Virus genome (UHGV): UHGV-0087839
From: a virus
Length of the DNA stretch: 37,264 bases
Direction: 5' to 3' (one strand)
A program made the position numbers and the translations under genes. Positions 1-35,833 of this stretch are shown here, piece by piece. Position 1 is the first letter of the stretch. Each line of letters starts with the position of its first letter. The notes below the pieces were generated by a model. It searched no databases. It saw only the letters and a list, made by a program, of their open reading frames with translations, and was not told the origin of the DNA.

Positions 1-18
1 TTACCTTGGCAACCGATT

Positions 19-40
19 GACGGGGGATTGCTCCCCCGTC
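19..40 (-). terminator. Stem-loop immediately 3' of the hok-like ORF (GACGGGGGA-TTGC-TCCCCCGTC); no clear U-tract
   Basis: Perfect 9-bp inverted repeat with 4-nt loop read directly from the sequence, 10 nt downstream of the ORF stop on the minus strand. Confidence 0.3.
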
Positions 41-49
41 GCGGTTTCC

Positions 50-190
50 TTACTGCTTACACTGTAAGAACGCCGCAAACTCCGCTCCCCAGAAGCTCAT
101 CCGTATTTCACACAGCGAACCGTGCAACATCCAGATGATGAGGATTGCCGTCACGCAGAACGTGATGGCCGTAAGCGATTTTTGCGACAT
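50..190 (-). CDS. hok: Hok/Gef-family type I toxin (46 aa), absent from the supplied ORF track
   Basis: Reverse-strand translation MSQKSLTAITFCVTAILIIWMLHGSLCEIRMSFWGAEFAAFLQCKQ: N-terminal hydrophobic helix followed by the SLCEIR...E.AAF motif typical of Hok/Gef peptides; stop is followed by a stem-loop. Confidence 0.6.
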   Translation of the reverse strand: MSQKSLTAITFCVTAILIIWMLHGSLCEIRMSFWGAEFAAFLQCKQ

Positions 191-320
191 AGCACTTGCT
201 CCTTTTCCGGAGAGGCGCTAACCTTTCACTTGTCAAGGTAATGCGGTTAGGGCCTCGGTTAAACAGAGATGTTTTCCGGGGCCTTTCCACATCTGGCCTT
301 CGGGTATTCCCTCCGACCAT
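108..320 (-). CDS. Possible mok-like overlapping reading frame upstream of and overlapping hok
   Basis: 70-codon ORF in a different frame, starting upstream of hok and ending inside it, matching hok/mok architecture; no sequence-level support beyond position. Confidence 0.3.
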   Translation of the reverse strand: MVGGNTRRPDVERPRKTSLFNRGPNRITLTSERLAPLRKRSKCYVAKIAYGHHVLRDGNPHHLDVARFAV

Positions 321-380
321 CAGCCGAAAGGCACCCGCGCGTAATCTATCGCTTTTTTGTTACTCCGGCAATTCTGCCTG

Positions 381-641
381 TTAATTCTGAGGTAAAGGCA
401 AGCTCATCTGATTGTTTCCCCTGTGTGAAGCTGGCAGCTCATGCCACGGGATACCTTCTGAAGAGTGAACGCCGGAGGTGTGTTTCGATGTGAATTTATG
501 GAAAGCTTCCAGTGTTGAGAAGCATACGCCGCATTCCAGATTGTTACACTGGTAATACTTTTGCCGTACGGTGTTTGAATCATTTTCCGGGCGACTAGTG
601 CGGATACGGGCAGATGCGCCACAAAGCGGACAACGGAACAT
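381..641 (-). CDS. ogr: Ogr/Delta-family zinc-finger late transcription activator
   Basis: Translation starts MFRCPLCGASARIRTSR...YYQCNNLECGVCF, i.e. CPLC...C..C zinc-finger pattern closely resembling P2 Ogr; GGGAGG ribosome-binding site upstream of the ATG. Confidence 0.85.
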   Translation of the reverse strand: MFRCPLCGASARIRTSRPENDSNTVRQKYYQCNNLECGVCFSTLEAFHKFTSKHTSGVHSSEGIPWHELPASHRGNNQMSLPLPQN

Positions 642-903
642 AGCGACCTCCCTTAACGTGGTGCAGTCACTATTCTAAGATTTACTTGCTCGGACTCCAA
701 CTGGCAGTTTGCGTAGCCAGAATGCAATCAAACCTGACAGTCCGCTTTGAGTTGTGAGTTCAACGGGTCGATGTCAGAAATGTCATTTTGCGATTGAATT
801 TCGCAATATTGAATTCTGTAAGAATGAAAAAGAATATATAGTGTTTATGGCTGTGACGGTGGCGGTCTTTTGTGTGTTTCACTGAGCGCCTGGGGAAAGA
901 TGT

Positions 904-926
904 AAAAAACCGCCCAGCGGCGGCTT
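904..926 (-). terminator. Rho-independent terminator downstream of the PRTase/SLOG-like operon
   Basis: On the minus strand: CCGCC-GCTG-GGCGG stem-loop followed by TTTTTT, about 30 nt after the stop of the 954..1511 gene. Confidence 0.5.
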
Positions 927-953
927 TGACTACAGAGAAAAAAGATTTGCACG

Positions 954-1511
954 TCAGATTAGGGCTATCTGCTGATTATTTAGCTTCTCCAATCTTTCAG
1001 ACAGTTTTATCTTATCTTCAACTTTTTCCAGCGATGATGCTGACATAAAGCTAATCAGCTTATCAATATCTTTAGGTTCTTTGATAAGAACAAACTCCCT
1101 TGTCTTATTAATGAAAACAGCTGAGTTTTTCTTTCTTGATAGCAACTCAATGACGTTGCTCAGTGTTCCCGGACTTTTTGTATCCCAAACCATAAGGCCA
1201 CAGTCTGCTGTTTCTGCCATCTTTATATCTTTGGCTGTGTAGAAATCTCGAGTTCCGGGTCGGAAGTTTGATTTAACGAGTTTCACGGGCCATGCACCAA
1301 AATTGTTTCGTGGCTTGGCATCACTAGTGAACACAGTGGTTGCGCTATAACCCAATTGTTTTAGTTCCAGCTGTACGGAAGAGTCAACGCCAGAGGCGTC
1401 ACCGACGATAACATTAAAGTTCTTGTCAACAATCTTCTTTAAGCGCTCAACGATAAGCGGGTCGAGCTTTTTAATGGTTATCGAGCCAGCAACGAAAACT
1501 GTCGTTGTCAT
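954..1511 (-). CDS. Rossmann-fold protein with SLOG/DprA/LOG-like signature (tentative); second gene of accessory cassette
   Basis: 185-aa ORF; N-terminal VFVAGS...VIVGDASGVD glycine-rich strand-loop pattern resembling DprA/YpsA/LOG (SLOG) nucleotide-binding domains; AT-rich relative to phage backbone; GGAG ribosome-binding site 6 nt upstream of the ATG; start 2 nt after the stop of the upstream gene. Confidence 0.6.
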   Translation of the reverse strand: MTTTVFVAGSITIKKLDPLIVERLKKIVDKNFNVIVGDASGVDSSVQLELKQLGYSATTVFTSDAKPRNNFGAWPVKLVKSNFRPGTRDFYTAKDIKMAETADCGLMVWDTKSPGTLSNVIELLSRKKNSAVFINKTREFVLIKEPKDIDKLISFMSASSLEKVEDKIKLSERLEKLNNQQIALI

Positions 1512-1513
1512 GG

Positions 1514-2101
1514 TTATCTCCAGGTTAGTGCTGCTACATAAATTTTATTGATTTTATTATAACCGCGTAACGCTGTAACTGCAGCTTCCATGGATGCTCC
1601 TGTATGGAAGAGATCATCAACGATGAGGGCATTAAAAGGGCCATCCCCGACAATTTGGTTTTGATAAGAAAAAGCGTCAGCAACAGCAGCTTCTTTCTCT
1701 TCTTTAGTGTTCAGATTTTTCAAAGACACGCCACCAGGTGCTTTGATTAATAACTCATTGAAGCTAAACATGTTATTTCCCATTTTTGATGCCAGAGCGT
1801 CAGTAATTGCTGTCACGGGTTGAATTTTTCGAACATTTGAAGCTGCCATTGGGATGATTAATTGTATGTTTTGAAAAAGAGGCACAGCATTAACTAATAG
1901 GCACTGGGCAAGCGCATCAACTTGGTCCATGTCATTTTGATATTTTAACTGGTATACGGCTTCTCCAACCTCCGTGCGATCGTTTTGAAACATAGGCTTG
2001 CCATACTCGTTATCACCTAAATAAGTACTCTTAATCAAATGCTTATCCATCGCGTAACCTAAATCCCAGTTACCCGTAATTGGCTTGATGTTTACTTTCA
2101 C
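1514..2101 (-). CDS. Phosphoribosyltransferase (PRTase, ComF-like) domain protein; first gene of accessory cassette
   Basis: 195-aa ORF with C-terminal PRPP-binding signature ALIVDDLFHTGASM (hydrophobic-DD-hydrophobic-x-TGxT); GTG start preceded by AAGGAAAG; AT-rich. Confidence 0.75.
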   Translation of the reverse strand: MKVNIKPITGNWDLGYAMDKHLIKSTYLGDNEYGKPMFQNDRTEVGEAVYQLKYQNDMDQVDALAQCLLVNAVPLFQNIQLIIPMAASNVRKIQPVTAITDALASKMGNNMFSFNELLIKAPGGVSLKNLNTKEEKEAAVADAFSYQNQIVGDGPFNALIVDDLFHTGASMEAAVTALRGYNKINKIYVAALTWR

Positions 2102-2334
2102 TACGCTTTCCTTGTTTGTTGTAATTGTTAATGAAGATACGCTAATTGGGAGTAATCCTAAAAGAAATCTTTAGTGAATTGTGAAGGCCGTTCGATCTTA
2201 TAGGGGAATTGAGTATTTTCTATTGAAGTACAATAGTTAGTGTCCGATCTTGGCATAGAGCGAACTGTTAGATTAGGTTTGGTTCTGTGCCGTAAGCGTG
2301 TCAGCTCTGAGCTGGGCTAATGCATCTAAATTGC

Positions 2335-3444
2335 TCACTCTGTTTCTGCTATCCATTCCGGGATTTTTGCTTCAAGCTCAAGCCGCGTGGTAAAACCGCT
2401 GTTATCAATAGAGTGCTCCGCTTTTGCAATAATCCAGTCCTGATTATCAATGTCGCTTTTGAAGCCTGTCACCGTGCCATGCATTTCGGGGTAGAGTTCT
2501 GCGCGGCCACGCGCCAGCGTGATGGAAAAAGATGCCGCTCCGCGCTGTAGCTGCTGCCACTTTGCAGCTGCTGCGCGCCTTGCTGCCTGCTCGTTCTGAT
2601 AAGTCTTGCGTAACACAAACACATTGCCTTCCGCGCCTTCCATATAATCACCTTCACGGCTGCTGCTTTTCTCCTTTTTGGGTTTTGGCGGTTTACGGCG
2701 TTTCACGCTGACTTTTTTCTTTTTCCCGTAATTAAGATCAAGCCAGTAGGCGCGTACCCCCGTATACGCCTCGCGGTCAGCAATGCGGAACTGATGGCGA
2801 TCGCCGCTGCTGCGTGTGATGGCGAACGATGGCAACGGCTGGCCCTGTGCGTTCACGCCACCGCCTGGCATGATGAATAACAGATTACCGCTTTTTACCG
2901 TGGTGATTGCGCCCAGCATTTCCGCCATGCGCGTAAGGAAGGACATGTCGCTTTCTTCGGTCTGGTCGGCGTGGTCGATTTCGATATCCATCAGCATTTC
3001 GCTGATTTGCGGTTTCAGACCGTACCGATGAGCGATGGCGGATACCACGCGCTCGACGGTCACATCATGCCAGGACACCTCACGTTTAACGTTAAATTCA
3101 TCCCGAAAATCTGCGCTTCTGGCTGAAACAGTCAGCCTGTCCGGCGGTCCTTCGTGAGCGATTTCATCAACAATGTAAGTGCCTTTTTCTGTCAGCGGTT
3201 CTCCCTTCCAGCCAATGAGAACCGTCAGGCGCGCGCCCCGTGGCGGTAGCTGCAACTGACCATCCGCATCATCCAGCGTGATGGTGAGCTGGTCCGCCTC
3301 AAATCCCCGGTTGTCGGTCAGTGACAGGCTCATCAGGCGCTCTGCCACGCCTGACAGCGTTTTACCCTCCGCGAGAATATCAAAATCCGGCATTTTTACG
3401 GGGTCTGTGCCCTGACTGAGCAATTGCATGGTGGTGTCGGTCAT
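2335..3444 (-). CDS. D: P2 gpD-like tail protein (late gene D)
   Basis: Translation closely resembles P2 gpD; start placed at the internal ATG (MTDTTMQLLSQ...) preceded by GGGAGGGAG; the track ORF extends further upstream to 3576. Confidence 0.85.
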   Translation of the reverse strand: MTDTTMQLLSQGTDPVKMPDFDILAEGKTLSGVAERLMSLSLTDNRGFEADQLTITLDDADGQLQLPPRGARLTVLIGWKGEPLTEKGTYIVDEIAHEGPPDRLTVSARSADFRDEFNVKREVSWHDVTVERVVSAIAHRYGLKPQISEMLMDIEIDHADQTEESDMSFLTRMAEMLGAITTVKSGNLLFIMPGGGVNAQGQPLPSFAITRSSGDRHQFRIADREAYTGVRAYWLDLNYGKKKKVSVKRRKPPKPKKEKSSSREGDYMEGAEGNVFVLRKTYQNEQAARRAAAAKWQQLQRGAASFSITLARGRAELYPEMHGTVTGFKSDIDNQDWIIAKAEHSIDNSGFTTRLELEAKIPEWIAETE

Positions 3445-3601
3445 CTGCTCCCTCCCTGTGTGGCATGGTCGCATGTGCGTGCGGAGGGGGTTACTGCTTT
3501 TTGTTGTCGCCGTGGCGGGAGAATGGCGCAGGGGTGAGATTACGCGCGTGGTGGGTGATGATTGTTGCCGAATCATTTAACGGATACAAGGGGCTGAAGC
3601 T

Positions 3602-4786
3602 ATGAGTGAAACTCGTTTTCATGGTGCCCGTGTTACGGAAAATACCGACCTGGTAACAGCGATTAACGATGTTGATTCCAGCGTTATCGGTATCGTGGCA
3701 ACGGCGGATGATGCGGACGCGAAGCTGTTCCCGCTGAACAAGCCCACACTGCTGACCCGCGTCAATGACGTGCTGGGAAAATGCGGGACAACGGGGACGC
3801 TTTATCGTGCGCTTAAGGCCATCGCAGACCAGGTGAGCACAAAGGTGATCGTCGTTCGCGTGGCTGAACACAAAGAAGAAGACGGAAAGACGCAGGATCA
3901 ACTGGTTATCGGTGGTTCTGAGGATGACGGCAGCTATACGGGGATGTATGCGCTGCTTGTTGCAGAGCTGGATGAAAGCATCGGATACCGTCCGCGTATT
4001 CTGGCCGCGCCGGAGCTGGACACGGAGGCTGTAACAAAATCCCTGTGCGTGATTGCAGGTAAACTGCGCGCGTTTGTGTATGCCTCATGTCACAGCTGTA
4101 ACACGATGGCTGAGGCGATTACCTACCGCCAGAAATTCAACGAACGTGAGGTGATGCTCTTATGGCCGGACTTCATCGCCTACAACCCGAAAAGTGGCAA
4201 AAACGAAACGTTCCCCGCGCCTGCCTATGCGTGCGGCCTTCGTGCGTACATTGACCATGAGCAGGGATGGCACAAATCACTGTCCAACGTTCCGGTTAAA
4301 AATGTGCTGGGGATGTCGAGGCATGTGTTCTGGTCGTTGCAGGCCGAAGACAGCGATGCCAACAGCCTCAACAACAAAGAAATCACGACCATTATTCGTC
4401 GCAACGGGTTCCGCTTCTGGGGCAACCGCACACCGGAAACGAACGCCTACATCTTTGAGGTGTATACCCGAACCGCACAGGTGCTGGCTGATTCAATTGC
4501 GGAAGCGCAGTTTGAAACCATCGACAGTCCACTGACGCCTGCGAACGTGAAGGATGTTATCAGTGCCATCAGGGCAAAACTGGATTCACTGGTTACTGCC
4601 GGGAAACTGATTGGCGCGGAGTGCTGGTATGACGTGGTGGATAACAGCACCACGGATTTACGTCAGGGGCGTGTGCGTATTCGCTACAAATATACGCCCG
4701 TTCCGCCACTGGAAGACATGGAGCTTTACCAGACGTTTACTGATGAATACTTTGAACCCGCATTTGCGGTTCTGGGAGGTGCCTGA
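3602..4786 (+). CDS. FI: Contractile tail sheath protein (P2 FI-like)
   Basis: 394 aa; long collinear similarity to P2 FI (e.g. FPLNKP, LRAF.Y, WPDF, GWHK.LSNV, IRR.GFRFWGNRT, YTPVPPLE). Confidence 0.9.
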   Translation: MSETRFHGARVTENTDLVTAINDVDSSVIGIVATADDADAKLFPLNKPTLLTRVNDVLGKCGTTGTLYRALKAIADQVSTKVIVVRVAEHKEEDGKTQDQLVIGGSEDDGSYTGMYALLVAELDESIGYRPRILAAPELDTEAVTKSLCVIAGKLRAFVYASCHSCNTMAEAITYRQKFNEREVMLLWPDFIAYNPKSGKNETFPAPAYACGLRAYIDHEQGWHKSLSNVPVKNVLGMSRHVFWSLQAEDSDANSLNNKEITTIIRRNGFRFWGNRTPETNAYIFEVYTRTAQVLADSIAEAQFETIDSPLTPANVKDVISAIRAKLDSLVTAGKLIGAECWYDVVDNSTTDLRQGRVRIRYKYTPVPPLEDMELYQTFTDEYFEPAFAVLGGA

Positions 4787-5298
4787 TGGCTGTGCCAAAA
4801 CATCTTCGCTTTTTTACGCTGTTTGTGGATGGAGAAAACGAAGTGGGTAAGGTGACGTCCGTCACTCTGCCCAAACTGACGCGCAAAACCGACAGCTACC
4901 GGGGTGGTGGCATGATGGGGGCGGTAAGTATTGATCTCGGTCTGGACGACTCTGCGCTTGATGCGAGCTTTGTCATGGGGGGCGCAGTTCGTGAGCTGTT
5001 CCTTAAGTATGGCGGCACGATTGACGGCACGCTGCTGCGTTTTGCGGGTGAATACTACACCGATGCAGAAAGCGACCTGTATGAAGTCGAAATGCGCGGA
5101 CGTGTGACGGAAATTGATATGGGGGAAGCCAAACAGGGCGAAGCCACATCACACACTTACGCCATTAAAAACACCTACTACAAGCTGAGTGTTAACGATC
5201 GCCCGTTGTGGGAGATTGACCTGCTGAACTTCATTTACCGGAAGGACGGCAAGGACATTGTGCCCGATCGCATCCGTTCCGCGCTTGGGCTTGGCTGA
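4786..5298 (+). CDS. FII: Tail tube protein (P2 FII-like)
   Basis: 170 aa, immediately follows FI with overlapping stop/start; size and position match P2 FII. Confidence 0.85.
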   Translation: MAVPKHLRFFTLFVDGENEVGKVTSVTLPKLTRKTDSYRGGGMMGAVSIDLGLDDSALDASFVMGGAVRELFLKYGGTIDGTLLRFAGEYYTDAESDLYEVEMRGRVTEIDMGEAKQGEATSHTYAIKNTYYKLSVNDRPLWEIDLLNFIYRKDGKDIVPDRIRSALGLG

Positions 5299-5352
5299 TA
5301 AGTAATATGCAGGCGGCGCAGTGCGTCGCCTCTGACTGAAAGGAGTTTCCTG

Positions 5353-5718
5353 ATGAAAGAGACGAAAAACATCGATACCGAAAACACGGTAGTTACTGAC
5401 ACTGTGAAAGAAACCAGTGAGCGTGGCGTAAAACTTACCCAACCAATTGAGCGAGGCGGCGAAAAAATCACGTATGTGGAGATCACCGGGGCTATTGAGC
5501 AGGCTGGATCTCTGCGAGATTTGTCGCTGTCTGATGTGCTGAATCTGAAAGCGGAATCCATGTTTACGCTGCTGTCACGCGTGACATCACCGCGACTGGA
5601 TGAAGTGACGATCAAAAAAATGGCATCCCGTGACTTTATTCAGTTATGTGTGGTTGCCGTAAATTTTTTGAGCGGTGCGGACTCTGGCGGGAAGAACGAA
5701 CAGGCGACGGAAGCCTGA
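5353..5718 (+). CDS. E: Tail assembly chaperone gpE
   Basis: 121-aa ORF between tube and tape-measure genes; contains slippery TTTTTTG near its 3' end. Confidence 0.75.
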   Translation: MKETKNIDTENTVVTDTVKETSERGVKLTQPIERGGEKITYVEITGAIEQAGSLRDLSLSDVLNLKAESMFTLLSRVTSPRLDEVTIKKMASRDFIQLCVVAVNFLSGADSGGKNEQATEA

Positions 5719-5882
5719 TCACGGTTGTGTGCTTTGAGCACATAGAAGACTATGTGGCAGATATTGCCGTTATTTTTAACTGGTCGCCCGCCGAAATCTT
5801 CATGATGACGCCCGGCGAAGTGGTTAGCTGGCGTGAGCGGGCGGCACTTCGCAGCGGGAATGCAGATAATGAAGACTCTTGA
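5646..5882 (+). CDS. gpE' extension frame (expressed as E+E' by -1 frameshift)
   Basis: ORF in the -1 frame relative to E, overlapping the E 3' end and ending just after the T start; canonical P2 E/E' arrangement. Confidence 0.65.
   Translation: MCGCRKFFERCGLWREERTGDGSLITVVCFEHIEDYVADIAVIFNWSPAEIFMMTPGEVVSWRERAALRSGNADNEDS
5664..5670 (+). other. Programmed -1 ribosomal frameshift slippery site TTTTTTG (E to E')
   Basis: Heptamer T-TTT-TTG positioned so that the E frame reads AAT-TTT-TTG and the E' frame reads TTT-TTT-GAG. Confidence 0.6.
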
Positions 5883-8676
5883 CATCCGGGTCGCTTTCAG
5901 CGCCGTTGACAGGCTGACCCGGCCTGCCGAAAACGCCCGCCGCCTGATGGGGCAGTTTGGTGACTCCATCCAGCGAACGCAGGGGGCGATCAAAAATCTC
6001 GAGCGTCAGGCGCGATCATTTGAGCGCGCCCGCGACGCTGTCAGTAAAGCGGATGCTGGCATCGTGAAAGCACGACGCCAGCTTAACGCCCTTAATCAGT
6101 TACAACGCACGGGTACAGTGCTCAGCGAAAAACAACAAAAGCTGATGCAGCAGTTAAGCACCCGGCTTGAACGCCTGAATGAATCGCGCACACGGGAAAT
6201 TCAGAAAATGCGGGAACTTGGCGGAGAGCTGAAACGCCACGGCATTTCCCTGACAGGCAGCGATAACACCATCCAGCAGGCCATCAGACGCACCGAACAG
6301 TACAACAACCAACTTGAACGCGAACGGCAGGCGCTTGCGCGTGTAACGCGGGCGCGTGAGCGGTATTCGCGCGCGCAGGAAACCGCGGGAAAACTGAAAA
6401 CAGGTGGTGCGCTGGCAATTGGTGCTGCAGCGGCTGGCGGCTATGCTGCTGGGCGTTTTTTGCAGCCTGCGATCGGGTTCGGCAAAGAGATGTCCCGCGT
6501 TCAGGCACTGACGCGAATCGACAAAAACAGCCCGCAGTTTAAGGCGCTGCGTGAGCAGGCGTTAAAACTTGGTTCTGAAACACAGTTTACTGCGAGTGAT
6601 GCCGCCAGTGGGCAGAGCTTTCTGGCAATGGCTGGTTTTACTCCGCAGGCCATTCAGGCCGCATTGCCCGGTGTTCTTAATATGGCGCTGGCAGGTGGCG
6701 TCGAACTCGGCGAGACGGCGGATATAGGCTCCAATATCCTCACACAGTTCAACCTGACAGCCGATCAAATGGACCGGGTGGGCGATACGCTGACAGCGGC
6801 ATTCACCCGGACCAATACTGATTTACGCGCGCTGGGCGAAACCATGAAGTATACCGGTCCGGTTGCCGCAAAACTTGGTATCAGTCTTGAAGAAGCGGCA
6901 GCCATGGCCGGGATGCTTGCCAATAATGGTCTTCGTGGAAGCGATGCTGGTACGGCCATGCGCGCAAGTCTGTCCCGCCTTGCATCACCGCCAAAAGCTG
7001 CGGCTGATGCGCTGAAAGAGCTGGGGGTGTCAGTTGCTGACGCCAGAGGCAAAATGCGCCCGATGGAGGATGTGCTGCTTGATCTCTATAAGGCGACACA
7101 AAAATACGGACAGGTGGACCAGGTCTCCTTCTTCAAGGACATCGCCGGAGAAGAGGCGTTCGTTGGTTTGCAGACGCTTGTTGCGGCGGCTGGTTCAGGA
7201 GAGCTGCAAAAACTGACCAGAGAATTGCAGGGGGCAAGGGGAGAGGCCGATCGCGTTGCAAAAGTAATGGCCGATAATCTTGATGGGGACCTGAAAAATC
7301 TCGACAGCGCATGGGAAGGTCTTCGTATTCGCATCAGTGATCTGGTTGACGGTCCGCTGCGTTCTGTCACGCAGTGGCTCACGTGGGTGCTTGAAAAAAT
7401 CACCTCGCTGGCGCAGGCCCATCCGGTACTGACGCGCCAGCTACTGATAGCAGGCGGTGCGTTGCTGGCAATGACTGCAACGGTTGGCTCGTTGTCGCTG
7501 GCTATTGGTGTGCTTGCTGGCCCGCTGGCAAAACTGCGTCTTGGCTTTTCCCTCCTGACCGGTTCAATGAATGCTGTCAGACTCCTGCCAGCACTATGGG
7601 GAATGGTGACGGGTTCCGTTTCGTTACTGGGGGGCGCTATCGGGGCGTTGTTCAGTCCGGTCGGTCTTATCGTGGCTGCGCTTGCCGGAGCTGCCGTTCT
7701 CATCTGGAAATACTGGGATCCCATCAGGGCATTTTTTGCCGGGGTGTTCAGCGGGATTATGGAAAGGCTGACCCCGTTGCGCGAAACCTTTGAACGGTTT
7801 GGTCCTGTTTTTGACGCAATCGGAAGCGGGATCAGCCAGGTGTTTAACTGGTTTAAATCGCTGTTGTCACCGATGGAGTCCAGCAAGGAAACGCTGGATA
7901 AATGTACCAGTGCTGGCGAGATATTCGGTAACGTTCTTGGCGGTGCGTTACAACTTGTTCTGACACCTGCAAAAATGCTACTGGATACGCTGGCGTGGAT
8001 ACTTGAAAAACTTGGCGTCCTTCCGGATGAAGCGGAAAGGGCGCGCAAGAAAATCGAAGACGCACAGCGTGCGGCCATTCTTCAGGACAAGGTTGCCTTA
8101 CTTCAGGGGGACCTGGCGAAAATCAATCCACCTAAGCCTGTGGAAAATGGCAATGGCACCGGAGGTGATAAACCCAAAGACAACAAACCGCTCACAGACA
8201 GCAATACTGGGACGCTACGCAGACTCAGCAAAATTGCTGATAACACAGGTAAGTTGGTTGATGAGACGAAAAAACGCATTGGCCCCGGCGATATTGTCTT
8301 TAAGAACCTGCCCCGCGCACTTGCTGTTCGTGGGGAGTGGCAGGAGCGGAAGATTGCACAGGTCAGTAAGCCTGCCCCCGCAATTAATATCACCCCCGTG
8401 GTCCCGGCTCCGCTGCCTCCGGCGCTGGTCCCTGTTGTTGCGGCCAGCTCCCGCCCGGTGGCGGAGGCCATACGATCTCCAGTGGCATCAGTTCCTGTAA
8501 CTTCCCGTAACCGGGAGCCTGTTGCCTCCGGATTTGGTGGTGAAATTCATGTTCATCTGCATAACGTTGTTACGCAGAATCCCCGCGAACTGGCGAAACT
8601 GGTCGGTGAAATGGTCAGGGCAGAAATGGAACGGCGCGCCCGTGCCGGGCGTGGCAGTTTTTACGATAAAGATTGA
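5863..8676 (+). CDS. T: Tail tape measure protein gpT
   Basis: About 940 aa, coiled-coil-rich N-terminus and Gly/Ala-rich hydrophobic central segments typical of tape measure proteins; lies between E/E' and U. Start approximate (ATG at 5863 or 5872). Confidence 0.85.
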   Translation, partial: QIMKTLDIRVAFSAVDRLTRPAENARRLMGQFGDSIQRTQGAIKNLERQARSFERARDAVSKADAGIVKARRQLNALNQLQRTGTVLSEKQQKLMQQLSTRLERLNESRTREIQKMRELGGELKRHGISLTGSDNTIQQAIRRTEQYNNQLERERQALARVTRARERYSRAQETAGKLKTGGALAIGAAAAGGYAAGRFLQPAIGFGKEMSRVQALTRIDKNSPQFKALREQALKLGSETQFTASDAASGQSFLAMAGFTPQAIQAALPGVLNMALAGGVELGETADIGSNILTQFNLTADQMDRVGDTLTAAFTRTNTDLRALGETMKYTGPVAAKLGISLEEAAAMAGMLANNGLRGSDAGTAMRASLSRLASPPKAAADALKELGVSVADARGKMRPMEDVLLDLYKATQKYGQVDQVSFFKDIAGEEAFVGLQTLVAAAGSGELQKLTRELQGARGEADRVAKVMADNLDGDLKNLDSAWEGLRIRISDLVDGPLRSVTQWLTWVLEKITSLAQAHPVLTRQLLIAGGALLAMTATVGSLSLAIGVLAGPLAKLRLGFSLLTGSMNAVRLLPALWGMVTGSVSLLGGAIGALFSPVGLIVAALAGAAVLIWKYWDPIRAFFAGVFSGIMERLTPLRETFERFGPVFDAIGSGISQVFNWFKSLLSPMESSKETLDKCTSAGEIFGNVLGGALQLVLTPAKMLLDTLAWILEKLGVLPDEAERARKKIEDAQRAAILQDKVALLQGDLAKINPPKPVENGNGTGGDKPKDNKPLTDSNTGTLRRLSKIADNTGKLVDETKKRIGPGDIVFKNLPRALAVRGEWQERKIAQVSKPAPAINITPVVPAPLPPALVPVVAASSRPVAEAIRSPVASVPVTSRNREPVASGFGGEIHVHLHNVVTQNPRELAKLVGEMVRAEMERRARAGRGSFYDKD

Positions 8677-8682
8677 GGAGTC

Positions 8683-9177
8683 ATGGCCATGATGATGATC
8701 TACGGCATGTTTGTTTTTGAGCTGCGCACGTTGCCGCATCAGCAGTTACAGCAAAACAAAAGCTGGCGGCATGTGAAAAATGAACGCGTTAACCGTTCAG
8801 CAAGCTGGCAGTATATCGGGGCAGGCGATGATCGCATCGTTCTTTCTGGTGTGCTTTATCCTGAAATTACAGGTGGCGAAGTGTCGCTTTCGTTGCTGAC
8901 CACACAGGCATATACAGGACGCCCCTGGCCTCTGATTGATGGTGTCGGGCAGATTTACGGCATGTATGTCCTGACCGGAACGAATACGACCCGCTCCGAG
9001 TTTGATCGCTACGGTAAGGCGAAAAAGATAGAATTTTCACTGTCTCTTGAACGCTGTGATGAGGATTTGCGGGAGCGCCTGCAATCCTCATCGTTCAGTG
9101 ATATGCTGTCCGGCTTCAAAGATAAGGTCACATCATCCCTTAACAGCGCGGCCAGCTCCGTTAAAGGGCTGTTTTGA
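8683..9177 (+). CDS. U: Tail protein gpU
   Basis: 164 aa; N-terminus MAMMMIYGMFVFELRTLPHQ resembles P2 gpU; follows T. Confidence 0.85.
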   Translation: MAMMMIYGMFVFELRTLPHQQLQQNKSWRHVKNERVNRSASWQYIGAGDDRIVLSGVLYPEITGGEVSLSLLTTQAYTGRPWPLIDGVGQIYGMYVLTGTNTTRSEFDRYGKAKKIEFSLSLERCDEDLRERLQSSSFSDMLSGFKDKVTSSLNSAASSVKGLF

Positions 9178-9188
9178 TTAACGCAAAA

Positions 9189-9214
9189 CCGCTAATGGTC
9201 AGATTAGCGGTTTT
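9189..9214 (+). terminator. Hairpin with T-tract between convergent U and invertase genes (possibly bidirectional)
   Basis: CCGCTAAT-GGTCAG-ATTAGCGG followed by TTTT; A-run on the 5' side gives a T-run on the opposite strand. Confidence 0.45.
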
Positions 9215-9803
9215 CATTTTCCTGAGTCTGCCTGGTTGTTTCTTCAGCCTGTATATCGCCTACAGGGTGATAACGATAAATCGTCGATATGCCGATGTCG
9301 TAAATGATCGCCAGTTGTTTCCTGTCATGACCGTTTTTAATCAGCCTCGCTATTTGCTCGTGTTGTTCTTTTGTCAACTTCGGGCGACGTCCGCCAATGC
9401 GTCCTTGTGCGCGTGCTGCTGCCAGCCCGGCCAGTGTACGCTCTACAATTAATTCACGTTCCATTTCGGCTAAAGCCCCCATGACGTGAAAAAAGAAACG
9501 CCCCATGGGTGTTGATGTGTCAATGCTGTCCGTCAGACTACGGAAATTAACACCTTTTTCCCGCAATTCCTCAATAAGCGTGATCAGGTGTTTCATACTT
9601 CTGCCCAGTCTGTCCAGCTTCCAGACAACCAGCGTATCTCCTTCTGATAGCGTTCTGAGCAGTTTTTTCAATCCCGGTCTGGCTGATTTCGTTCCGCTGA
9701 TTTTATCTTCAAAAATCAGTTCACATCCTGCGCAGTTCAGTGCATTGCGTTGTAAATCCGTGTTCTGGTCATTTGTTGACACACGAATATAGCCAATTTG
9801 CAT
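9204..9803 (-). CDS. Serine DNA invertase, Hin/Gin/Cin/Pin family
   Basis: Translation MQIGYIRVSTNDQNTDLQRNAL... matches the resolvase/invertase catalytic N-terminus (serine in RVST); C-terminal HTH; AAAGAGG ribosome-binding site 9 nt upstream of the ATG at 9803. Confidence 0.9.
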   Translation of the reverse strand: MQIGYIRVSTNDQNTDLQRNALNCAGCELIFEDKISGTKSARPGLKKLLRTLSEGDTLVVWKLDRLGRSMKHLITLIEELREKGVNFRSLTDSIDTSTPMGRFFFHVMGALAEMERELIVERTLAGLAAARAQGRIGGRRPKLTKEQHEQIARLIKNGHDRKQLAIIYDIGISTIYRYHPVGDIQAEETTRQTQENENR

Positions 9804-9857
9804 AAAAAACATCCTCTTTGTTTCGTGAAAAATACATAGTTGGTATAGGTAGGGATA

Positions 9858-9883
9858 AAGACGAAAACGTTGGTTTGGGGGAA
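9858..9883. repeat. Invertase crossover site (gix/hix-like), copy A
   Basis: 26-bp sequence whose reverse complement TTCCCCCAAACCAACGTTTTCGTCTT resembles hix/gix sites; sits at the 5' edge of a roughly 200-bp segment repeated three times. Confidence 0.55.
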
Positions 9884-10303
9884 GGCTCTGCGCTGCCCGT
9901 TGGTGTGCCCGTTCCATGGCCCTCAGCCACGCTGCCAACGGGGTGGCTGAAATGTAACGGCGCAGCATTTTCTTCTGAAATGTACCCCAATCTGGCAAAG
10001 GCCTACCCCACCAATAAATTACCGGATTTACGGGGCGAATTTATTCGTGGCTGGGATGATGGACGTGGTGTGGACAATGGGAGAGCATTATTAAGCAGCC
10101 AAGAGGCTACAAATTTTTCTCAGCGTGCCGGAAATATAGGCGATGGTGCGGGCCACGCAATTAATTTTCATGATGGCATAGTCGGAAATCAGCCAGGATT
10201 TTCACGATTTAATTTCACCAGTAACTCTGTAGGCGATGGTATAAATTTTGTTGCTGTCAGGCCGCGAAATATCGCATTTAATTACATCGTAAGGGCAGCA
10301 TGA
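9884..10303 (+). CDS. Promoterless alternative tail-fibre C-terminal cassette A
   Basis: Encodes GLGEGSALPVGVPVPWP...KLPDLRGEFIRGWDDGRG, near-identical to the C-terminal region of H on the opposite strand, then a divergent core and the shared ending RPRNIAFNYIVRAA. Confidence 0.65.
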   Translation, partial: GSALPVGVPVPWPSATLPTGWLKCNGAAFSSEMYPNLAKAYPTNKLPDLRGEFIRGWDDGRGVDNGRALLSSQEATNFSQRAGNIGDGAGHAINFHDGIVGNQPGFSRFNFTSNSVGDGINFVAVRPRNIAFNYIVRAA

Positions 10304-10322
10304 AAACGTTGGTTTGGGGGAA
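10297..10322. repeat. Invertase crossover site (gix/hix-like), copy B
   Basis: Second direct copy of the site; contains the stop codon of cassette A. Confidence 0.55.
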
Positions 10323-10772
10323 GGCTCTGCACTGCCCGTTGGTGTACCTGTTCCATGGCCCTCAACCACGCCGCCAACGGGGTGGCTGAAATGTAACGGC
10401 GCAGCATTTTCTTCTGAAATGTATCCCAGACTGGCAATGGCTTACCCCACCAATAAATTACCGGATTTACGCGGTGAATTTATCCGTGGCTGGGATGATG
10501 GGCGCGGGGTGGATGCCGGAAGGGGCATCTTAAGCATGCAGGGGTGGTTAACAGGAAGTCATTATCATAATATTCGGTCATGGGACGCGTGGGATAACAC
10601 GGTACTGGTGCCAAATGACAAAGGAGGGGATAGTCTGTTGTCGACAGATAACGCCGTCCGGCAAGGTGCAATTAACGGTAGATTTACCAGTCAATACAGA
10701 ACGGAATCCTCAGGGGGGAATGAAACCCGCCCACGCAATATTGCCTTCAATTATATTGTGAGAACCGCATAA
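10323..10772 (+). CDS. Promoterless alternative tail-fibre C-terminal cassette B
   Basis: Same conserved 5' segment and RPRNIAFNYIVRTA ending as cassette A and H, with a different central core. Confidence 0.65.
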   Translation, partial: GSALPVGVPVPWPSTTPPTGWLKCNGAAFSSEMYPRLAMAYPTNKLPDLRGEFIRGWDDGRGVDAGRGILSMQGWLTGSHYHNIRSWDAWDNTVLVPNDKGGDSLLSTDNAVRQGAINGRFTSQYRTESSGGNETRPRNIAFNYIVRTA

Positions 10773-11383
10773 TGAATAACGCGATATTAAATGATGACCT
10801 TATTGCCGTACAGGCAGGAAACATCGTCGTTTATAACTATGATAGTGAGACACGGGAATATATTTCCGAATCAACTGAATATCTTGCTGTGGGTGTCGGT
10901 ATTCCGGCAAATTCCTGTTTAGATGCCCCGGGCGCACATAAAGCGGGCTATGCTATCCGCCGTTCGGAGAATTTAAGTTCATGGGAGTATGCGCCAGACC
11001 ATCGTGGTGAAACCGTCTATAGCACTGACACGGGAAACACCGAAGAAATCACGGCGCTGGGTGACTACCCGAAAAATACAACCACTATCGCCCCGTTAAC
11101 ACCATACGATAAATGGGATGGTGAAAAATGGGTGACAGATACTGAGGCACAACATCGTGCCGCAGTAGAAGCGGCAGAAACCAAGCGCCAGTCACTGGCT
11201 GATGCGGCAATGGCTTCCATAAGTCTGATTCAGTTGAAGTTGCGGGCCGGGCGGAAGTTGACGCAGGCAGAAACCACCCGGCTTAATGCCGTGCTGGATT
11301 ATATAGACGCGCTGAACGCAATGGATATAAACATGGCACCAGATATCAACTTGCCGGAAATACCACTGGCAGCAGCCAGTTGA
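10772..11383 (+). CDS. Tail fibre assembly protein (Tfa/gpG-like)
   Basis: 203-aa ORF whose start overlaps the cassette B stop (TAATG); position and size fit a fibre chaperone within an invertible segment. Confidence 0.7.
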   Translation: MNNAILNDDLIAVQAGNIVVYNYDSETREYISESTEYLAVGVGIPANSCLDAPGAHKAGYAIRRSENLSSWEYAPDHRGETVYSTDTGNTEEITALGDYPKNTTTIAPLTPYDKWDGEKWVTDTEAQHRAAVEAAETKRQSLADAAMASISLIQLKLRAGRKLTQAETTRLNAVLDYIDALNAMDINMAPDINLPEIPLAAAS

Positions 11384-11389
11384 ATATAA

Positions 11390-13003
11390 CTAAGCCGCCC
11401 TCACGATATAGTTAAATGCAATATTGCGGGGGCGGGTTTCACTACCACCTGTGTTACCAATACTTCCTCGTGAATGAAGCGTTGGTGATGGAATCAAACT
11501 CCCTCCTGTATTTGCGGCATCAAGCCCCCTGCCTTGTGTATATGTTTTTTTGAAAATCGTAGCCAACTCCCATTCATCTTTTGTGTCATATCCATCGTTA
11601 GCTACAACAATATGGCGGTGTTTTTCCAACATCCCGTTTTGAATGCTCAATAAAGCGCGTGCCGCATCAATTCCTCGCCCATCATCCCAGCCACGGATAA
11701 ATTCACCGCGTAAATCCGGTAATTTATTGGTGGGGTAGGCTTTTGCCAGTTTGGGGTACATTTCAGAAGAAAATGCTGCACCGTTACATTTCAGCCAGCC
11801 CGTTGGTGGTGTTGCTAAGGGCCACGGAACGGGCACACCAACGGGCAGTGCAGAACCTTCTCCTAAACCAAGGTAATCAAGAACTCCCTGAGTGCTGGTT
11901 TTACCAAGAATGGCACGTCCAACACTTGTCAACGCGGTTAACGCGGCACGATCTGCCCCTGTAAAATATGGGAGTTTATCTGCTGATGTAGCAAGCTCCG
12001 CCAGCGCCGTCAGGGTGGCATCCTTCGGTTGCTTACCCGCAAGCGCGTTAGTCATGGTGGTCGCAAAATTCGGGTCATTGCCCAGCGCCGCAGCCAGTTC
12101 GTTCAGCGTGTTCAGTGCATCAGGTGACGAATCTACAAGTGCGGCAATCGCGGCCATAACGAAAGCCGTGCTTGCGATCTGGGTACTATTAGTCCCCTGT
12201 GGCGCTGTTGGTGTTGTTGGCGTTCCGGTCAGTGCCGGGCTGTTTAATGGTGCTTTCTTGTTCGTTTCATCCATTACCGCCTTAACAGCTTTTGGTGTCG
12301 CTGCCAGCGTTTCAGACGTGCTGTTCGTGGCGCTACTGAGCTGAACAATTCCTTTTTGTGTAGTGGTGGCGTTCTGGGCGGTATATTTCCCGTTAGCCAA
12401 GTCATATGCAGCCTTAACCGCTTTCGGTGTTGCGGCCAGTGTTTCTGATTCACTGTTAATTGCACTGCTTAACTGAGTAAAACCTTTTACGGTCAGCGAG
12501 GCGTCCGGGTGACGTCGTGACTGTTCGTGCTCTGAGATTTTATCATCCACATATTTGCGGGTTGCCAGAACCACAGACGGGTCGATTTTCAGCGTGATGG
12601 CTTCGGTGTTCGTGACAACCAGAATCATGCGGATAGTCTGGGTGCGTCCACTGCCTTCCTGCAACTGCGGTTTGTACGTTTCCGGGCAGTTTGCCACCGC
12701 AATGAGTACACCTTCATCATCATAAAGACCAATCTCACGGATCCAGAATCCTCCCTCGTTTTCAGGGATGATTTGCTCCGCAATAATCTGGCTCTGATTG
12801 TTAGGGTCAACACTCAGAAGATTCAGCGGTGCAATGCGTTTCTGGTTAATCAGTTTTGTTTGTGCAGGGTCTGGTGTTGGTAACACACCATTTGCATCAC
12901 CAACGGCCATTTGCGTCAGATTCAGCTTACTGCCGAGCATCGTCGCGTTAGCCAGTCGTGCCGCGCCCTGATTAGTCAGAATGGCGTAGTATTTCACTGT
13001 CAT
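11390..13003 (-). CDS. H: Tail fibre protein gpH (currently expressed variant)
   Basis: 537 aa; N-terminus resembles P2 H (MAVGD...LP.PD..QT.LI, GGFW.RE.GLYDD.G.LIAVAN, EHEQSRRHPDASL); internal SETLAATPKAVKA tandem repeat; C-terminal part shares the conserved segment with cassettes A and B. Confidence 0.9.
   Translation of the reverse strand: MTVKYYAILTNQGAARLANATMLGSKLNLTQMAVGDANGVLPTPDPAQTKLINQKRIAPLNLLSVDPNNQSQIIAEQIIPENEGGFWIREIGLYDDEGVLIAVANCPETYKPQLQEGSGRTQTIRMILVVTNTEAITLKIDPSVVLATRKYVDDKISEHEQSRRHPDASLTVKGFTQLSSAINSESETLAATPKAVKAAYDLANGKYTAQNATTTQKGIVQLSSATNSTSETLAATPKAVKAVMDETNKKAPLNSPALTGTPTTPTAPQGTNSTQIASTAFVMAAIAALVDSSPDALNTLNELAAALGNDPNFATTMTNALAGKQPKDATLTALAELATSADKLPYFTGADRAALTALTSVGRAILGKTSTQGVLDYLGLGEGSALPVGVPVPWPLATPPTGWLKCNGAAFSSEMYPKLAKAYPTNKLPDLRGEFIRGWDDGRGIDAARALLSIQNGMLEKHRHIVVANDGYDTKDEWELATIFKKTYTQGRGLDAANTGGSLIPSPTLHSRGSIGNTGGSETRPRNIAFNYIVRAA
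11858..11883. repeat. Invertase crossover site within H (TTCTCCTAAACCAAGGTAATCAAGAA), inverted relative to copies A and B
   Basis: Resembles hix/gix consensus (TTCT...AAACCAAGG...); at the constant/variable junction of H. Confidence 0.6.
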
Positions 13004-24787: not shown

Positions 24788-26992
24788 TTACGTGTCGAGA
24801 GAAATTTGTGTGCGCAGTTGAATAGGATTCAGAATTGTATATCGCTGGCGAATAACATTATATAAATCAAAGTCTTTTACCCTTACGCTTATTACCATCG
24901 CATATCGCATATCAGGGGCTGAAACTCCCTTAACATGGCGCGAAGAATCTCGGGCATGATACCGTATATCAAAAACTGGATCGCTTAATAATGTATCAGC
25001 ACTGAACTTTTTGCTTCTGTGCAAACAAGTTTCCCACTTATGACCTTCACTCCTACACTCCCTTTCAGTCTTATACTGGCTTTTTTGACCAAAGAAATCA
25101 TCTGTATCGGTATCGTCAAGGCCGAATCTTGGGCGGAAAGTTACCTGCATACCGGCCCTTGTATAGTTTACTGAATGTTCAGGATCTACTGGGGTTTGAA
25201 TGCATAAAGTAGCGGTAAGCTCAAATGCTTCGTCAAAGGGAACATCAGGGAATGGGATCGGTGCCCTTAAATATTTATTTTTTGCTAATGAACCATAGTA
25301 AATTACTGTAGCAGTATCATTTGGACAATCGATTAAAACGTTAGGATCCTCACTAAACCGTCCCCAACCGATATGTTCACGCGAATATTTTCTTGATGTT
25401 TCAGCATGATGAACAAGCAACGCTTTCAATGCAATGGTGTTCAATGGAGTTCCTGATAGAGCCGCAACTCCAGCGGCCGTTCTCAATGCTAATGGAGAGG
25501 CATAACTGGTTCCTTGAACTCCAACTATAGAACCAAGCAGAGGGTTGTAAGTGTAAAAAGGCTCGTCGTCGCTTCCACCAAAAATAACACCATCAGGTTT
25601 AACGAATCCGGGGCTTCTGCCTGGCCCAATACAGCTATATGGTGCCCGCCCCCATTTTTCATCGCTACGATCAGCAGCACCAATCGCTAGCGCGTTTACC
25701 ATATCAGAAGGAGGTTGTATTCTCGCTGCATCACCGTCCTCATTGCCATCATTCCCAACAGCAACAGTAAGTAATATCCCATGTTTAGCACAGATTTGGT
25801 CTAAAACAGCAGTCCATACATGAACCTCATCATCACCAATTGGAAGATGAGGACCAATACTTAGATTAGCGAACTTATAGTCACCACTATCAAGAACGGA
25901 CTGTATTTTCTTAAGGACATCAAATAAATCCCAATTGCCATTGTCACCTGATGTCGGTGAAAGAACTCTATAATGATCTACATTCATAAACGGTCTTTTA
26001 AAAGAAGGTGCATTTTCCTCGACACGTCCGAATAAGAAAGTGGATGTCACTTCATTACCGTGCTGCAATAATAATCCGCTTGTTTCTTTGGTGTCTGGAT
26101 ACACGTATTCCGTAACCCAATTACTCAAGTCAGCTGTCCCCAAGCCACCATCAAAAATGGCAATACGTTCGGATTCAAGAACAGCTTTAGAATTAGGGAG
26201 CTCCGGTGTAACTATATTAGATAACTTTCTGACAATGTTCGGCTGAGTACACCTGAGAGACGGCATCGGCCGCACAACGCGGATTAATGAAAAATCGAGT
26301 GTTTTTTTCATATCTTCAGGTCGCGCGTGTGCAACGATGAAAGTCAGCCCACCAACTTGGATTCTACTTTTGTAATCAACAGAGACATCATATTGTGCCG
26401 CATAGCTAATATAGGCTTTAACGATATCATCGTCTTCAACCCCAGCATGAAGAACCACTTCAAATTTTATCAAATCACTTTTCGCATGCTCAAAATTGCG
26501 TGCTCTCTCTTTTCCTTCAAAAAAGCTAACACTTTCAATTTCGATCAAATCCTTTTGTACGCCCTTCGGAGCTGTAGGGGAATTTAAAATTTCCTTAAAT
26601 CTTATAACGGCATCATCATCACCGCTAACAAACAGTTGCGCCGTTACTAAGTCCTTATTCTGATCGCACTGACGTGCCGCTTTCCGTGGGCGAATGATTA
26701 CCTGACGGCTACCGACATCCCGTAAACCTGTCGCTCTAAGCAATCCTTCCGGAAAGTAGCTTTTACCCAAAAACGCTGGGTGTAAAGTTAAATTGAATAC
26801 ACTCTCCCCCCTTGGCTTAGCCGCATCATCCAAACTGCGAAAGCGTGAGAGTAAAGTATCAATCTCTGGGTTTAAATGCTCCCTTACTTCTTCAAGAGTA
26901 TAGGGATAGCGCTTACCATCCCTTCCTTTAGGCAAAGGTTCCTTTTTTGTCAGAACATGACCGTTACCTAAAAGTAAGTTCCTTTCCATCAT
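24788..26992 (-). CDS. Subtilisin-like serine protease (peptidase S8) with N- and C-terminal extensions
   Basis: 734 aa; ordered Asp (IAIFDGG), His (VHVW) and Ser (GTSYASP) catalytic motifs plus oxyanion GN; AT-rich; start overlaps the upstream ATPase stop (ATGA). Confidence 0.8.
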   Translation of the reverse strand: MMERNLLLGNGHVLTKKEPLPKGRDGKRYPYTLEEVREHLNPEIDTLLSRFRSLDDAAKPRGESVFNLTLHPAFLGKSYFPEGLLRATGLRDVGSRQVIIRPRKAARQCDQNKDLVTAQLFVSGDDDAVIRFKEILNSPTAPKGVQKDLIEIESVSFFEGKERARNFEHAKSDLIKFEVVLHAGVEDDDIVKAYISYAAQYDVSVDYKSRIQVGGLTFIVAHARPEDMKKTLDFSLIRVVRPMPSLRCTQPNIVRKLSNIVTPELPNSKAVLESERIAIFDGGLGTADLSNWVTEYVYPDTKETSGLLLQHGNEVTSTFLFGRVEENAPSFKRPFMNVDHYRVLSPTSGDNGNWDLFDVLKKIQSVLDSGDYKFANLSIGPHLPIGDDEVHVWTAVLDQICAKHGILLTVAVGNDGNEDGDAARIQPPSDMVNALAIGAADRSDEKWGRAPYSCIGPGRSPGFVKPDGVIFGGSDDEPFYTYNPLLGSIVGVQGTSYASPLALRTAAGVAALSGTPLNTIALKALLVHHAETSRKYSREHIGWGRFSEDPNVLIDCPNDTATVIYYGSLAKNKYLRAPIPFPDVPFDEAFELTATLCIQTPVDPEHSVNYTRAGMQVTFRPRFGLDDTDTDDFFGQKSQYKTERECRSEGHKWETCLHRSKKFSADTLLSDPVFDIRYHARDSSRHVKGVSAPDMRYAMVISVRVKDFDLYNVIRQRYTILNPIQLRTQISLDT

Positions 26993-35784: not shown

Positions 35785-35833
35785 TCATGGAACGCTGGGG
35801 GCATGGTGGTCTTGTAACGCTGGGGTTTCACGA

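Follow-up and report, generated by a model that had tools for sequence, protein, structure and literature searches.

The element described here is a two-gene cassette in the virus genome UHGV-0087839, a DNA of 37,264 nucleotides (nt) that was analyzed over its whole length (the window) and that comprises a complete P2-family prophage, with ogr at one end and the integrase gene (35684-36808) at the other. The cassette is located between ogr and the phage late gene D and encodes, on the minus strand, a phosphoribosyltransferase (PRTase; gene 1, 1514-2101) and, directly downstream, a basic protein with a SLOG fold (gene 2, 954-1511). We think it probable that the cassette is a minimal, two-gene toxin-antitoxin module of the ShosTA/PsyrTA kind, with gene 1 as putative toxin and gene 2 as putative antitoxin, carried by a P88-like prophage as an anti-phage (abortive-infection) moron. 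Support for this idea comes from the finding that gene 1 and gene 2 are remote homologs of the two partners in ShosTA and PsyrTA, from the conserved order of PRTase then SLOG protein with a 2-nt gap, and from a pattern of decay that hits gene 1 and spares gene 2. It also comes from the company that the genes keep (viral contigs, a plasmid copy beside restriction-modification (R-M) systems, and defense-gene neighbors), from relatives of gene 2 that are joined to Abi_alpha, HEPN_AbiU2, NADAR or antitoxin-type helix-turn-helix (HTH) domains, and from an exchange of cargo at the D-ogr junction, which includes two predicted defense genes, in a prophage that also carries IetAS. Finally, there is precedent, since in ShosTA (PMC11961720, PMC12961424) and in RqlHI (PMC4670107) the toxic partner is the PRTase and the antitoxin is DprA-like, and protection against T7 and lambda is conferred by a pair of a DprA protein and a PRTase that stems from a P2 hotspot (PMC9122126).

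Gene 1 encodes a protein of 195 amino acids (aa), which starts with a GTG codon preceded by the ribosome-binding site AAGGAAAG at 2113-2106. The motif ALIVDDLFHTGASM is found in the protein, and the loop that binds phosphoribosyl pyrophosphate (PRPP), VDDLFHTGAS, corresponds to residues 161-170. The family is well conserved, with 386 matches; in an alignment of 49 of these homologs (51-89% identity), D162, D163, G168, and S170 do not vary, and T167 and A169 hardly do. Fold comparison was needed because searches of the PDB sequences, with single sequences and with profiles, matched the PRPP loop only for gene 1 and returned nothing for gene 2. It supported a PRTase fold for gene 1, the N-terminus of which is a three-stranded beta unit without zinc-finger cysteines. 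Gene 1 is a PRPP-binding PRTase with an intact PRPP site, in agreement with the preliminary description of this DNA, which had recognized the signature and named the enzyme class.

The curated models place gene 1 less firmly, as it scores 14.9 bits against Pfam Pribosyltran (cutoff 26.3) and 22 bits against NCBIfam comF (TIGR00201; cutoff 233). Among the defense libraries, its best sequence match is PADLOC PsyrT (E 1e-7), to profile positions 529-681 of 689, which are the C-terminal PRTase part only; the match to PADLOC ShosT (PDLC03962) is weak (E 0.0019, 16 bits). The PsyrT model is, however, matched by 49/49 of the gene 1 homologs (best 2.2e-12) and the ShosT model by 47/49 at E<=0.05 (best 1.1e-9), a level that signifies remote homology and no confident call. 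Because nearly the whole family matches these two models, gene 1 is, as judged from its sequence, a bare PRTase of the ComF clade and a likely remote relative of the PRTase toxins of PsyrTA and ShosTA.

The 185-aa product of gene 2 consists of a SLOG domain (residues ~1-145) and a C-terminal helical extension (146-184), and has an isoelectric point of 9.45 (family median 9.2). Its Rossmannoid fold is of the SLOG type, strands 1 and 2 being followed by glycine-rich loops, and fold comparison supports its assignment as a SLOG/DprA-like Rossmannoid protein, as had been suggested previously. The protein itself has no match in Pfam or NCBIfam, and its sole match in PADLOC, PDC-S09, is insignificant (E 0.022). 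Its family is nonetheless large, as a word-indexed search gave 352 matches and 1.84 billion cluster representatives (50% clustering) include 2,143 that match at E<=1e-3, and many of its polar residues are invariant. We therefore looked at affinities on the level of the family, by a scan of 150 diverged representatives in which all matches are sub-threshold. The top Pfam families were DprA (23/150), the cpYpsA-related YAcAr (14/150), and nucleoside deoxyribosyltransferase (6/150), with YpsA proper (DUF1273, PF06908) and LOG absent from them; the top defense models in PADLOC were ShosA (12/150, best 4e-5) and PsyrA (3/150, best E 0.021). Given these sub-threshold affinities to DprA and ShosA, and the lack of a LOG motif, gene 2 belongs to a distinct clade of SLOG proteins, one without a Pfam model, which in sequence is nearest to the DprA-like antitoxins.

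The last point bears on the mechanism that was originally proposed, in which the PRTase would make N-glycosidic bonds from PRPP and gene 2, as a LOG-like phosphoribohydrolase, would break them. Such an opposed, or futile, cycle would lead during infection to a drain of PRPP or nucleotides, or to the release of a modified base. The LOG motif PGGxGTxxE is not present in gene 2, where the sequence is KSPGTLSNVIE and the spacing differs, GT and E being separated by five residues, and gene 2 has no match to the LOG Pfam family (Lysine_decarbox). In the fold comparison, LOG structures ranked below those of YpsA, DprA, and ShosA. Furthermore, the fact that gene 1 is often lost where gene 2 is kept, described below, fits a toxin and its antitoxin better than two obligate halves of a pathway, and in the characterized relatives the toxin is the PRTase and its antitoxin the SLOG protein, which does not agree with the LOG-like role given to gene 2 in that proposal. 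We consider the depletion cycle unlikely, whilst gene 2 could still be an antitoxin that acts by hydrolysis.

The junction of the two genes reads TAA (1516-1514)-CC-ATG (1511), so that 2 nt separate them. Gene 1 ends with TGG-AGA-TAA, and the GGAG at 1521-1518 within its last codons is a classic arrangement for translational coupling. A homolog of gene 1 was located directly upstream, and on the same strand, in 98/105 loci retrieved through gene 2, and gene 2 was located directly downstream in 19/19 viral loci retrieved through gene 1. These counts, along with a plasmid copy of 83% identity (see below), support the earlier suggestion that the two genes form one tightly coupled, horizontally mobile operon, in the order PRTase then SLOG. 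The operon does not decay evenly. In the locus set, most of which was found through gene 2 with the best 80 matches retained, stop-to-stop analysis of open reading frames (ORFs) found gene 2 to be full-length in 105/105 loci, whereas in 19/104 informative loci gene 1 was missing, reduced to a 3'-remnant, interrupted by an insertion, frameshifted, or shortened by an internal deletion. Among the loci analyzed, gene 1 was thus decayed with gene 2 kept, and never the reverse, as one would expect of a toxin encoded by gene 1 and an antitoxin encoded by gene 2. Many of the decayed loci represent one conserved chromosomal site in fluorescent Pseudomonas (L036, L038, L042, L048, L049, L053, L056, L058, L069, and L071, around 9400-10555), at which the homologs of gene 2 are intact and the upstream PRTase gene is a 3' remnant or gone. 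The copies of gene 2 at this site look like orphan antitoxins.

The same orphans are relevant to a signaling scheme. The SLOG domain of ThsA senses isomers of cyclic ADP-ribose, and one could imagine that the PRTase makes an unusual nucleotide-like second messenger upon infection, which the SLOG domain of gene 2 senses before acting through oligomerization or a partner. The persistence of gene 2 after the loss of gene 1 would be odd for a sensor deprived of the source of its signal, and gene 2 contains neither an HTH nor an effector domain, as only ~40 residues of helix follow the SLOG fold. In all characterized PRTase plus SLOG systems, moreover, it is the PRTase itself that is the toxic effector (PMC4670107, PMC11961720). 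We therefore give little credence to a second messenger.

Relatives of gene 2 occur fused to NADAR, DUF4326, HEPN_AbiU2, Abi_alpha, and antitoxin-type HTH domains; for NADAR, HEPN_AbiU2, Abi_alpha, and the HTH domains, the partners are fused or adjacent. One example is a SLOG-Abi_alpha fusion (491 aa; L128, 168-2227) that directly follows a 195-aa homolog of gene 1 (1.8e-41) and lies beside SocAB. Another is a stand-alone NADAR-SLOG fusion (344 aa; P0279; L126, 1089-2123), which was seen on two independent contigs without a PRTase. An apparent PRTase-SLOG fusion (P0377) was considered as evidence of physical coupling and discarded, because a TGA separates the two genes under translation table 11 and the fusion is an artifact of a gene call with code 4. 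NADAR is a DNA-ADP-ribosyl glycohydrolase domain, and its fusions to the gene 2 family, together with the LOG-like fold and the basic charge of these proteins, hint at an analogy to DarTG with phosphoribose in the place of ADP-ribose. By this analogy, the PRTase would attach ribose-5-phosphate to bases of (single-stranded) DNA and its SLOG partner would remove the adduct, until an infection tips the balance and the DNA of both phage and host becomes phosphoribosylated. We regard this version as tentative and rather improbable.

Of the characterized systems, ShosTA is among the closest. It is the DprA plus PRTase pair that was taken from the cos-proximal hotspot of P2 and validated against T7 and lambda (Rousset, 2022; PMC9122126). 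ShosT is a pyrophosphatase-PRTase of 424 aa, the toxicity of which requires the binding of PRPP, whereas ShosA combines a SAM domain with a DprA-like Rossmann domain, binds to single-stranded DNA (ssDNA) as well as to RecA, and neutralizes ShosT without binding to it; the trigger is Gp0.7 of T7 (PMC11961720, PMC12961424). ShosT binds PRPP and none of the purines tested (PMC11961720). Like the cassette, ShosTA comprises two genes in an operon, of which the first encodes the PRTase and the second the SLOG/DprA-fold protein, it retains the PRPP loop, and it inhabits prophage hotspots and defense islands. Unlike ShosT, gene 1 has no N-terminal pyrophosphatase-like Rossmann domain and does not share the non-canonical architecture of its PRTase, with extended pyrophosphate (PPi) and flexible loops. 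Similarly, ShosA has a SAM domain and a nine-stranded Rossmann domain (over 313 aa), as compared to the bare SLOG domain in the 185 aa of gene 2, so that the features of the DprA family (PF02481), or of a ShosA with SAM and extended Rossmann domains, are lacking, and the window proteins miss any usable threshold for ShosT or ShosA.

The second parallel is PsyrTA, also known from RqlHI, where the genotoxic part of RqlH is its PRTase domain and the aspartates of the PRPP pocket are required (PMC4670107). The C-terminal, ComF-like PRTase domain of this toxin is what gene 1 matches, and the antitoxin gene, for a DprA/MoCo-carrier-like protein, likewise lies directly downstream. In contrast, PsyrT has an N-terminal RecQ-like helicase domain, for which there is no counterpart in gene 1; gene 2 lacks the N-terminal region and the HTH of RqlI, and its protein does not match PsyrA. 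A branch of the SLOG-protein family YpsA has also been reported, on computational grounds, to be encoded as a pair with a PRTase (Brzozowski, Burroughs, Aravind et al., 2019; PMC6459960). This is a one-line remark on genome context, given without accessions or experiments, and the branch is comparable to the cassette by description only; gene 2 does not match the YpsA family proper (PF06908). DS-32, which pairs a PRTase with an antitoxin-like NADAR protein and was validated in Escherichia coli (E. coli; DefensePredictor, 2026), resembles the cassette in that a PRTase is paired with a small protein of a glycohydrolase-type family, and NADAR-SLOG fusions are found among the gene 2 relatives. We rejected an identity with DS-32, since DS-32A is a 343-aa PRTase of the retron-III type with no relationship to gene 1 that hhalign could detect (probability 0.3%) and DS-32B lacks a SLOG domain. 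In the part of the DefensePredictor supplements that was covered, the RefSeq accessions of the cassette (WP_032083446, WP_052931257, WP_032083447, WP_032635040, and WP_032635041) were not found, an absence that is no proof; the lines reading "ComF family protein" in Table S3 were not used as evidence, because that table lists model features and gene names, those of housekeeping genes among them.

We found no paper or table in the literature that names or tests the present gene pair. Only to that extent is the pair undescribed, and the original claim goes too far, since the combination of a PRTase with a DprA-like SLOG protein is familiar from the named and validated systems ShosTA and PsyrTA/RqlHI. 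Failing their defining domains and curated thresholds, the cassette is a member of none of the ShosTA, PsyrTA, ComFC, LOG, and YpsA groups. As far as sequence comparison can tell, it is a stripped-down and very distant relative of ShosTA and PsyrTA, a compact variant that is new within a kind that is already known.

For the toxin-antitoxin module that we favor, we infer the following course of events. Gene 1, as a single-domain ComF-like PRTase, would bind PRPP and transfer ribose-5-phosphate to an acceptor, which may be a nucleobase, a nucleotide, or DNA, in a reaction that would be toxic to DNA replication. Gene 2, which is translated directly downstream on the shared transcript, would restrain the effect of the toxin. 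It might do so by binding nucleic acid or nucleotides and repairing or reversing the damage, in the manner in which ShosA acts through ssDNA and RecA, or else by binding the toxin directly, as RqlI does with RqlH. An infecting phage would then upset this balance, for example through a shut-off of host protein synthesis or a flood of ssDNA, whereupon the PRTase would be unopposed and the replication of the phage would fail.

The location of the cassette was described earlier as an insertion between D and ogr at 904-2334. The insertion is real, and that extent is too narrow. In a blastn comparison with phage P88 (locus L106), window positions 3-679 and 2325-3700 align and the remainder does not. 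Since homology breaks at 679 and resumes at 2325, the insert is an AT-rich segment of 1,645 bp at 680-2324, which is absent from P88 and from most related E. coli prophages. Its GC content in the cassette is 38-41%, as compared to 53-57% in the phage flanks; this AT-richness, the two ORFs and their coordinates, the 2-nt junction, and the terminator had all been given correctly. A query made of ogr, the cassette, and the 3' end of D was matched in 1,241 of the 5,426 complete genomes of E. coli. Of 60 records sampled from these 1,241 genomes, the great majority have matches to D and ogr that span ~1,050 bp, which indicates that the two genes are adjacent there, and the cassette is present in only 7 of the 1,241.

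In a minority of genomes, other single cargos occupy exactly the same point, namely DUF2971, DUF3800, PIN, YecA/SEC-C, ParA, two different hypothetical proteins, and IS600 (loci L130-L135). The cargo-bearing variants have in common ~80 bp toward D and 25-70 bp toward ogr (window 664-749 and 2241-2325, in the order of the window) that are lacking at the empty site, which is what an exchange of cassettes would lead one to expect. Two of these cargos, DUF2971 and YecA/SEC-C, appear on the DefensePredictor list of predicted novel defense genes; the possibility that the former is DS-45 ("2971") was rejected, as accession and length differ. These variants make the junction between D and ogr, in P88-like prophages of E. 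coli, a second site of cargo exchange, besides the known cos-proximal hotspot. In the text of Rousset (2022), we did not find this junction described as a hotspot, and ogr is not mentioned.

The rarity of the cassette also speaks to a role in the processing of DNA. ComFC and DprA act on ssDNA in natural transformation, and a ComFC-like plus DprA-like pair could, without any toxin-antitoxin logic, serve the recombination or replication of the phage, or superinfection exclusion at the point of DNA entry. Gene 1 differs from ComFC (Helicobacter pylori, 7p0h) in that the 4-Cys zinc finger is absent and in that it lies far below the comF cutoff, and it is found outside competence loci, strictly paired with a SLOG gene on mobile elements. 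Nearly all related prophages lack the cassette, so the phage life cycle does not depend on it, and the pair is equally frequent outside phages. We consider a phage-serving function of this type very unlikely.

Part of the insert is shared with a diverged copy on the E. coli AR_0119 plasmid unitig_4, which is 83% identical over the 1,299 bp that correspond to window 888-2184 and which adjoins a type II R-M system and another restriction endonuclease. Since the plasmid copy contains an 83-nt leader, both genes, and the terminator, we define these four elements (888-2184, minus strand) as the mobile unit. The terminator is an intrinsic stem-loop after gene 2 (909-921, minus strand; GCCGCTGGGCGGT then TTTTTTACATC), in which GCCGC-TGG-GCGGT (921-909) is followed by TTTTTT and which lies within the segment common to the plasmid copy. 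Upstream of gene 1, a spacer of 233 nt (2102-2334, minus strand) extends to the stop codon of D and holds the ribosome-binding site mentioned above; a promoter and terminator scan of this spacer found no strong sigma-70 consensus and no terminator after D. The remaining, ogr-proximal 230 bp of the insert (680-908), which are 3' of the cassette terminator and not common to the plasmid copy, contain a plus-strand hairpin that resembles a terminator (849-867), together with overlapping small ORFs (40-43 aa). This segment may supply a promoter for ogr, given that read-through from D would be stopped at the terminator of the cassette.

Beyond E. coli, relatives of gene 2 were found in 389 of ~185,000 species genomes (Enterobacterales, Pseudomonas, Burkholderiales, Acidobacteriota, and others) and on 23 IMG/VR viral contigs. 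A megablast search of the cassette against 50,697 phage records gave no match, so that on the phage side it is known only from prophages and IMG/VR contigs. The habitats of the pair are prophages, plasmids, and defense islands, as often outside phages as within. In a survey of 148 representative neighbors within 4.5 kb, we found integrases, resolvases, Lamassu LmuB, PARIS AriA, AbiLi, several defense reverse transcriptases, MADS components, PDC-S06, EcoRII, and ResIII, and no conserved metabolic operon. Together with the comparison of junction cargos, this bears out the expectation of a variable prophage site in defensive rather than metabolic company.

The occurrence on a plasmid, and the presence of hok/sok, a classic addiction module, at the same end of the prophage, could also suit a toxin-antitoxin pair that merely stabilizes the prophage or plasmid and plays no part in phage defense, and the structural and decay evidence is the same for both. 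In favor of defense, the neighborhoods are rich in dedicated defense genes, the closest characterized systems protect against phages (PMC9122126, PMC11961720), and the junction swaps its cargo like known prophage defense hotspots. Plain addiction is accordingly, in our estimation, quite unlikely.

Several observations weigh against the cassette being a toxin-antitoxin defense module. Toxicity, neutralization, and phage resistance are, for the gene 1/gene 2 family, all properties that we infer. The window proteins lie below every curated threshold (ShosT E 0.0019, no match to ShosA, and 14.9 against 26.3 bits in Pfam), and the companion domains are missing, that is, the pyrophosphatase of ShosT, the helicase of PsyrT, the SAM domain of ShosA, and the HTH of RqlI. 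The asymmetry of decay is partly biased by the way in which the loci were collected, mostly through gene 2 and from its best 80 matches, and some of the frameshifts in gene 1 are in metagenome bins. Finally, no clear constitutive promoter was found in the upstream spacer, which makes expression in the lysogen an assumption. We judge the class to which the preliminary description had assigned the cassette, a nucleotide-centric prophage defense moron, to be sound.

Other prophage genes recognized in the window are gpA, the terminase, tail-fiber, and tail genes. The prophage belongs to the P2 family, as had been stated, and is not P2 itself; it is P88-like (Xuanwuvirus, Peduoviridae), with E. coli as host. 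The cassette is flanked by D, the late gene for the baseplate hub (2335-3576, minus strand; Pfam Phage_GPD, 6.7e-17), coordinates that are those of the maximal ORF, as the D proteins annotated in relatives are shorter, and by ogr, which encodes the zinc-finger activator of the late genes (381-641, minus strand; Pfam Ogr_Delta, 5e-14). In P2, genes F, E, T, U, and D form a single operon. Here, the tail genes FI, FII, E, T, and U (3602-9177, plus strand) are on the strand opposite to D and diverge from it; as the same layout is seen in P88 and in E. coli NCTC11121, it is a feature of the lineage and not an assembly artifact.

A complete IetAS defense system is located at 24788-28071 (minus strand), in the canonical cos-proximal P2 hotspot, and consists of IetS (24788-26992, minus strand; PADLOC 2.1e-41, with a subtilase domain) and IetA (26989-28071, minus strand; PADLOC 3.6e-89, an AAA ATPase). 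The prophage therefore holds cargo at two separate sites. The hok/sok type I toxin-antitoxin locus at its ogr end (50-336, minus strand) comprises an ORF of the Hok/Gef family (50-190, minus strand) and sok (177-336, minus strand), the latter matched in Rfam with 48.4 bits (E 3.7e-9), which falls short of the gathering score (59); the annotation of P88 has a MokW/hok gene at the equivalent place. When the insert was scanned with Rfam for regulatory or antitoxin RNAs, sok was the sole match, and it lies outside the insert. A serine invertase gene (9204-9998, minus strand; Resolvase, 3.2e-51, and HTH_7) adjoins tail-fiber and tail-fiber-assembly genes (10314-13003), some of which are on opposite strands, and these genes probably form a host-range switch of the Gin/Cin type. 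Next to replication gene A lies a gene for an actin-like segregation protein, ParM/StbA (28766-29725, minus strand; StbA_N 2.1e-82, ParM_N 6.3e-69), which is unusual in an integrating P2-like phage.

PRTase toxins recur across anti-phage systems, including ShosTA, PsyrTA, type III retrons, DS-32, and Ophion, and the cassette reveals neither a new kind of immunity nor a new principle. It does mark a blind spot, as current defense annotators miss this branch. Its family is the smallest version found so far, a bare PRTase and a bare SLOG domain of ~380 residues in all, and both proteins model with high confidence. The minimal size and the many relatives make the family convenient for finding the acceptor of the PRTase and for learning how the SLOG protein neutralizes the toxin. 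If the DarTG-like scheme were true, it would identify, in the simplest system, the acceptor of the defense PRTases ShosT, PsyrT, and those of the type III retrons.

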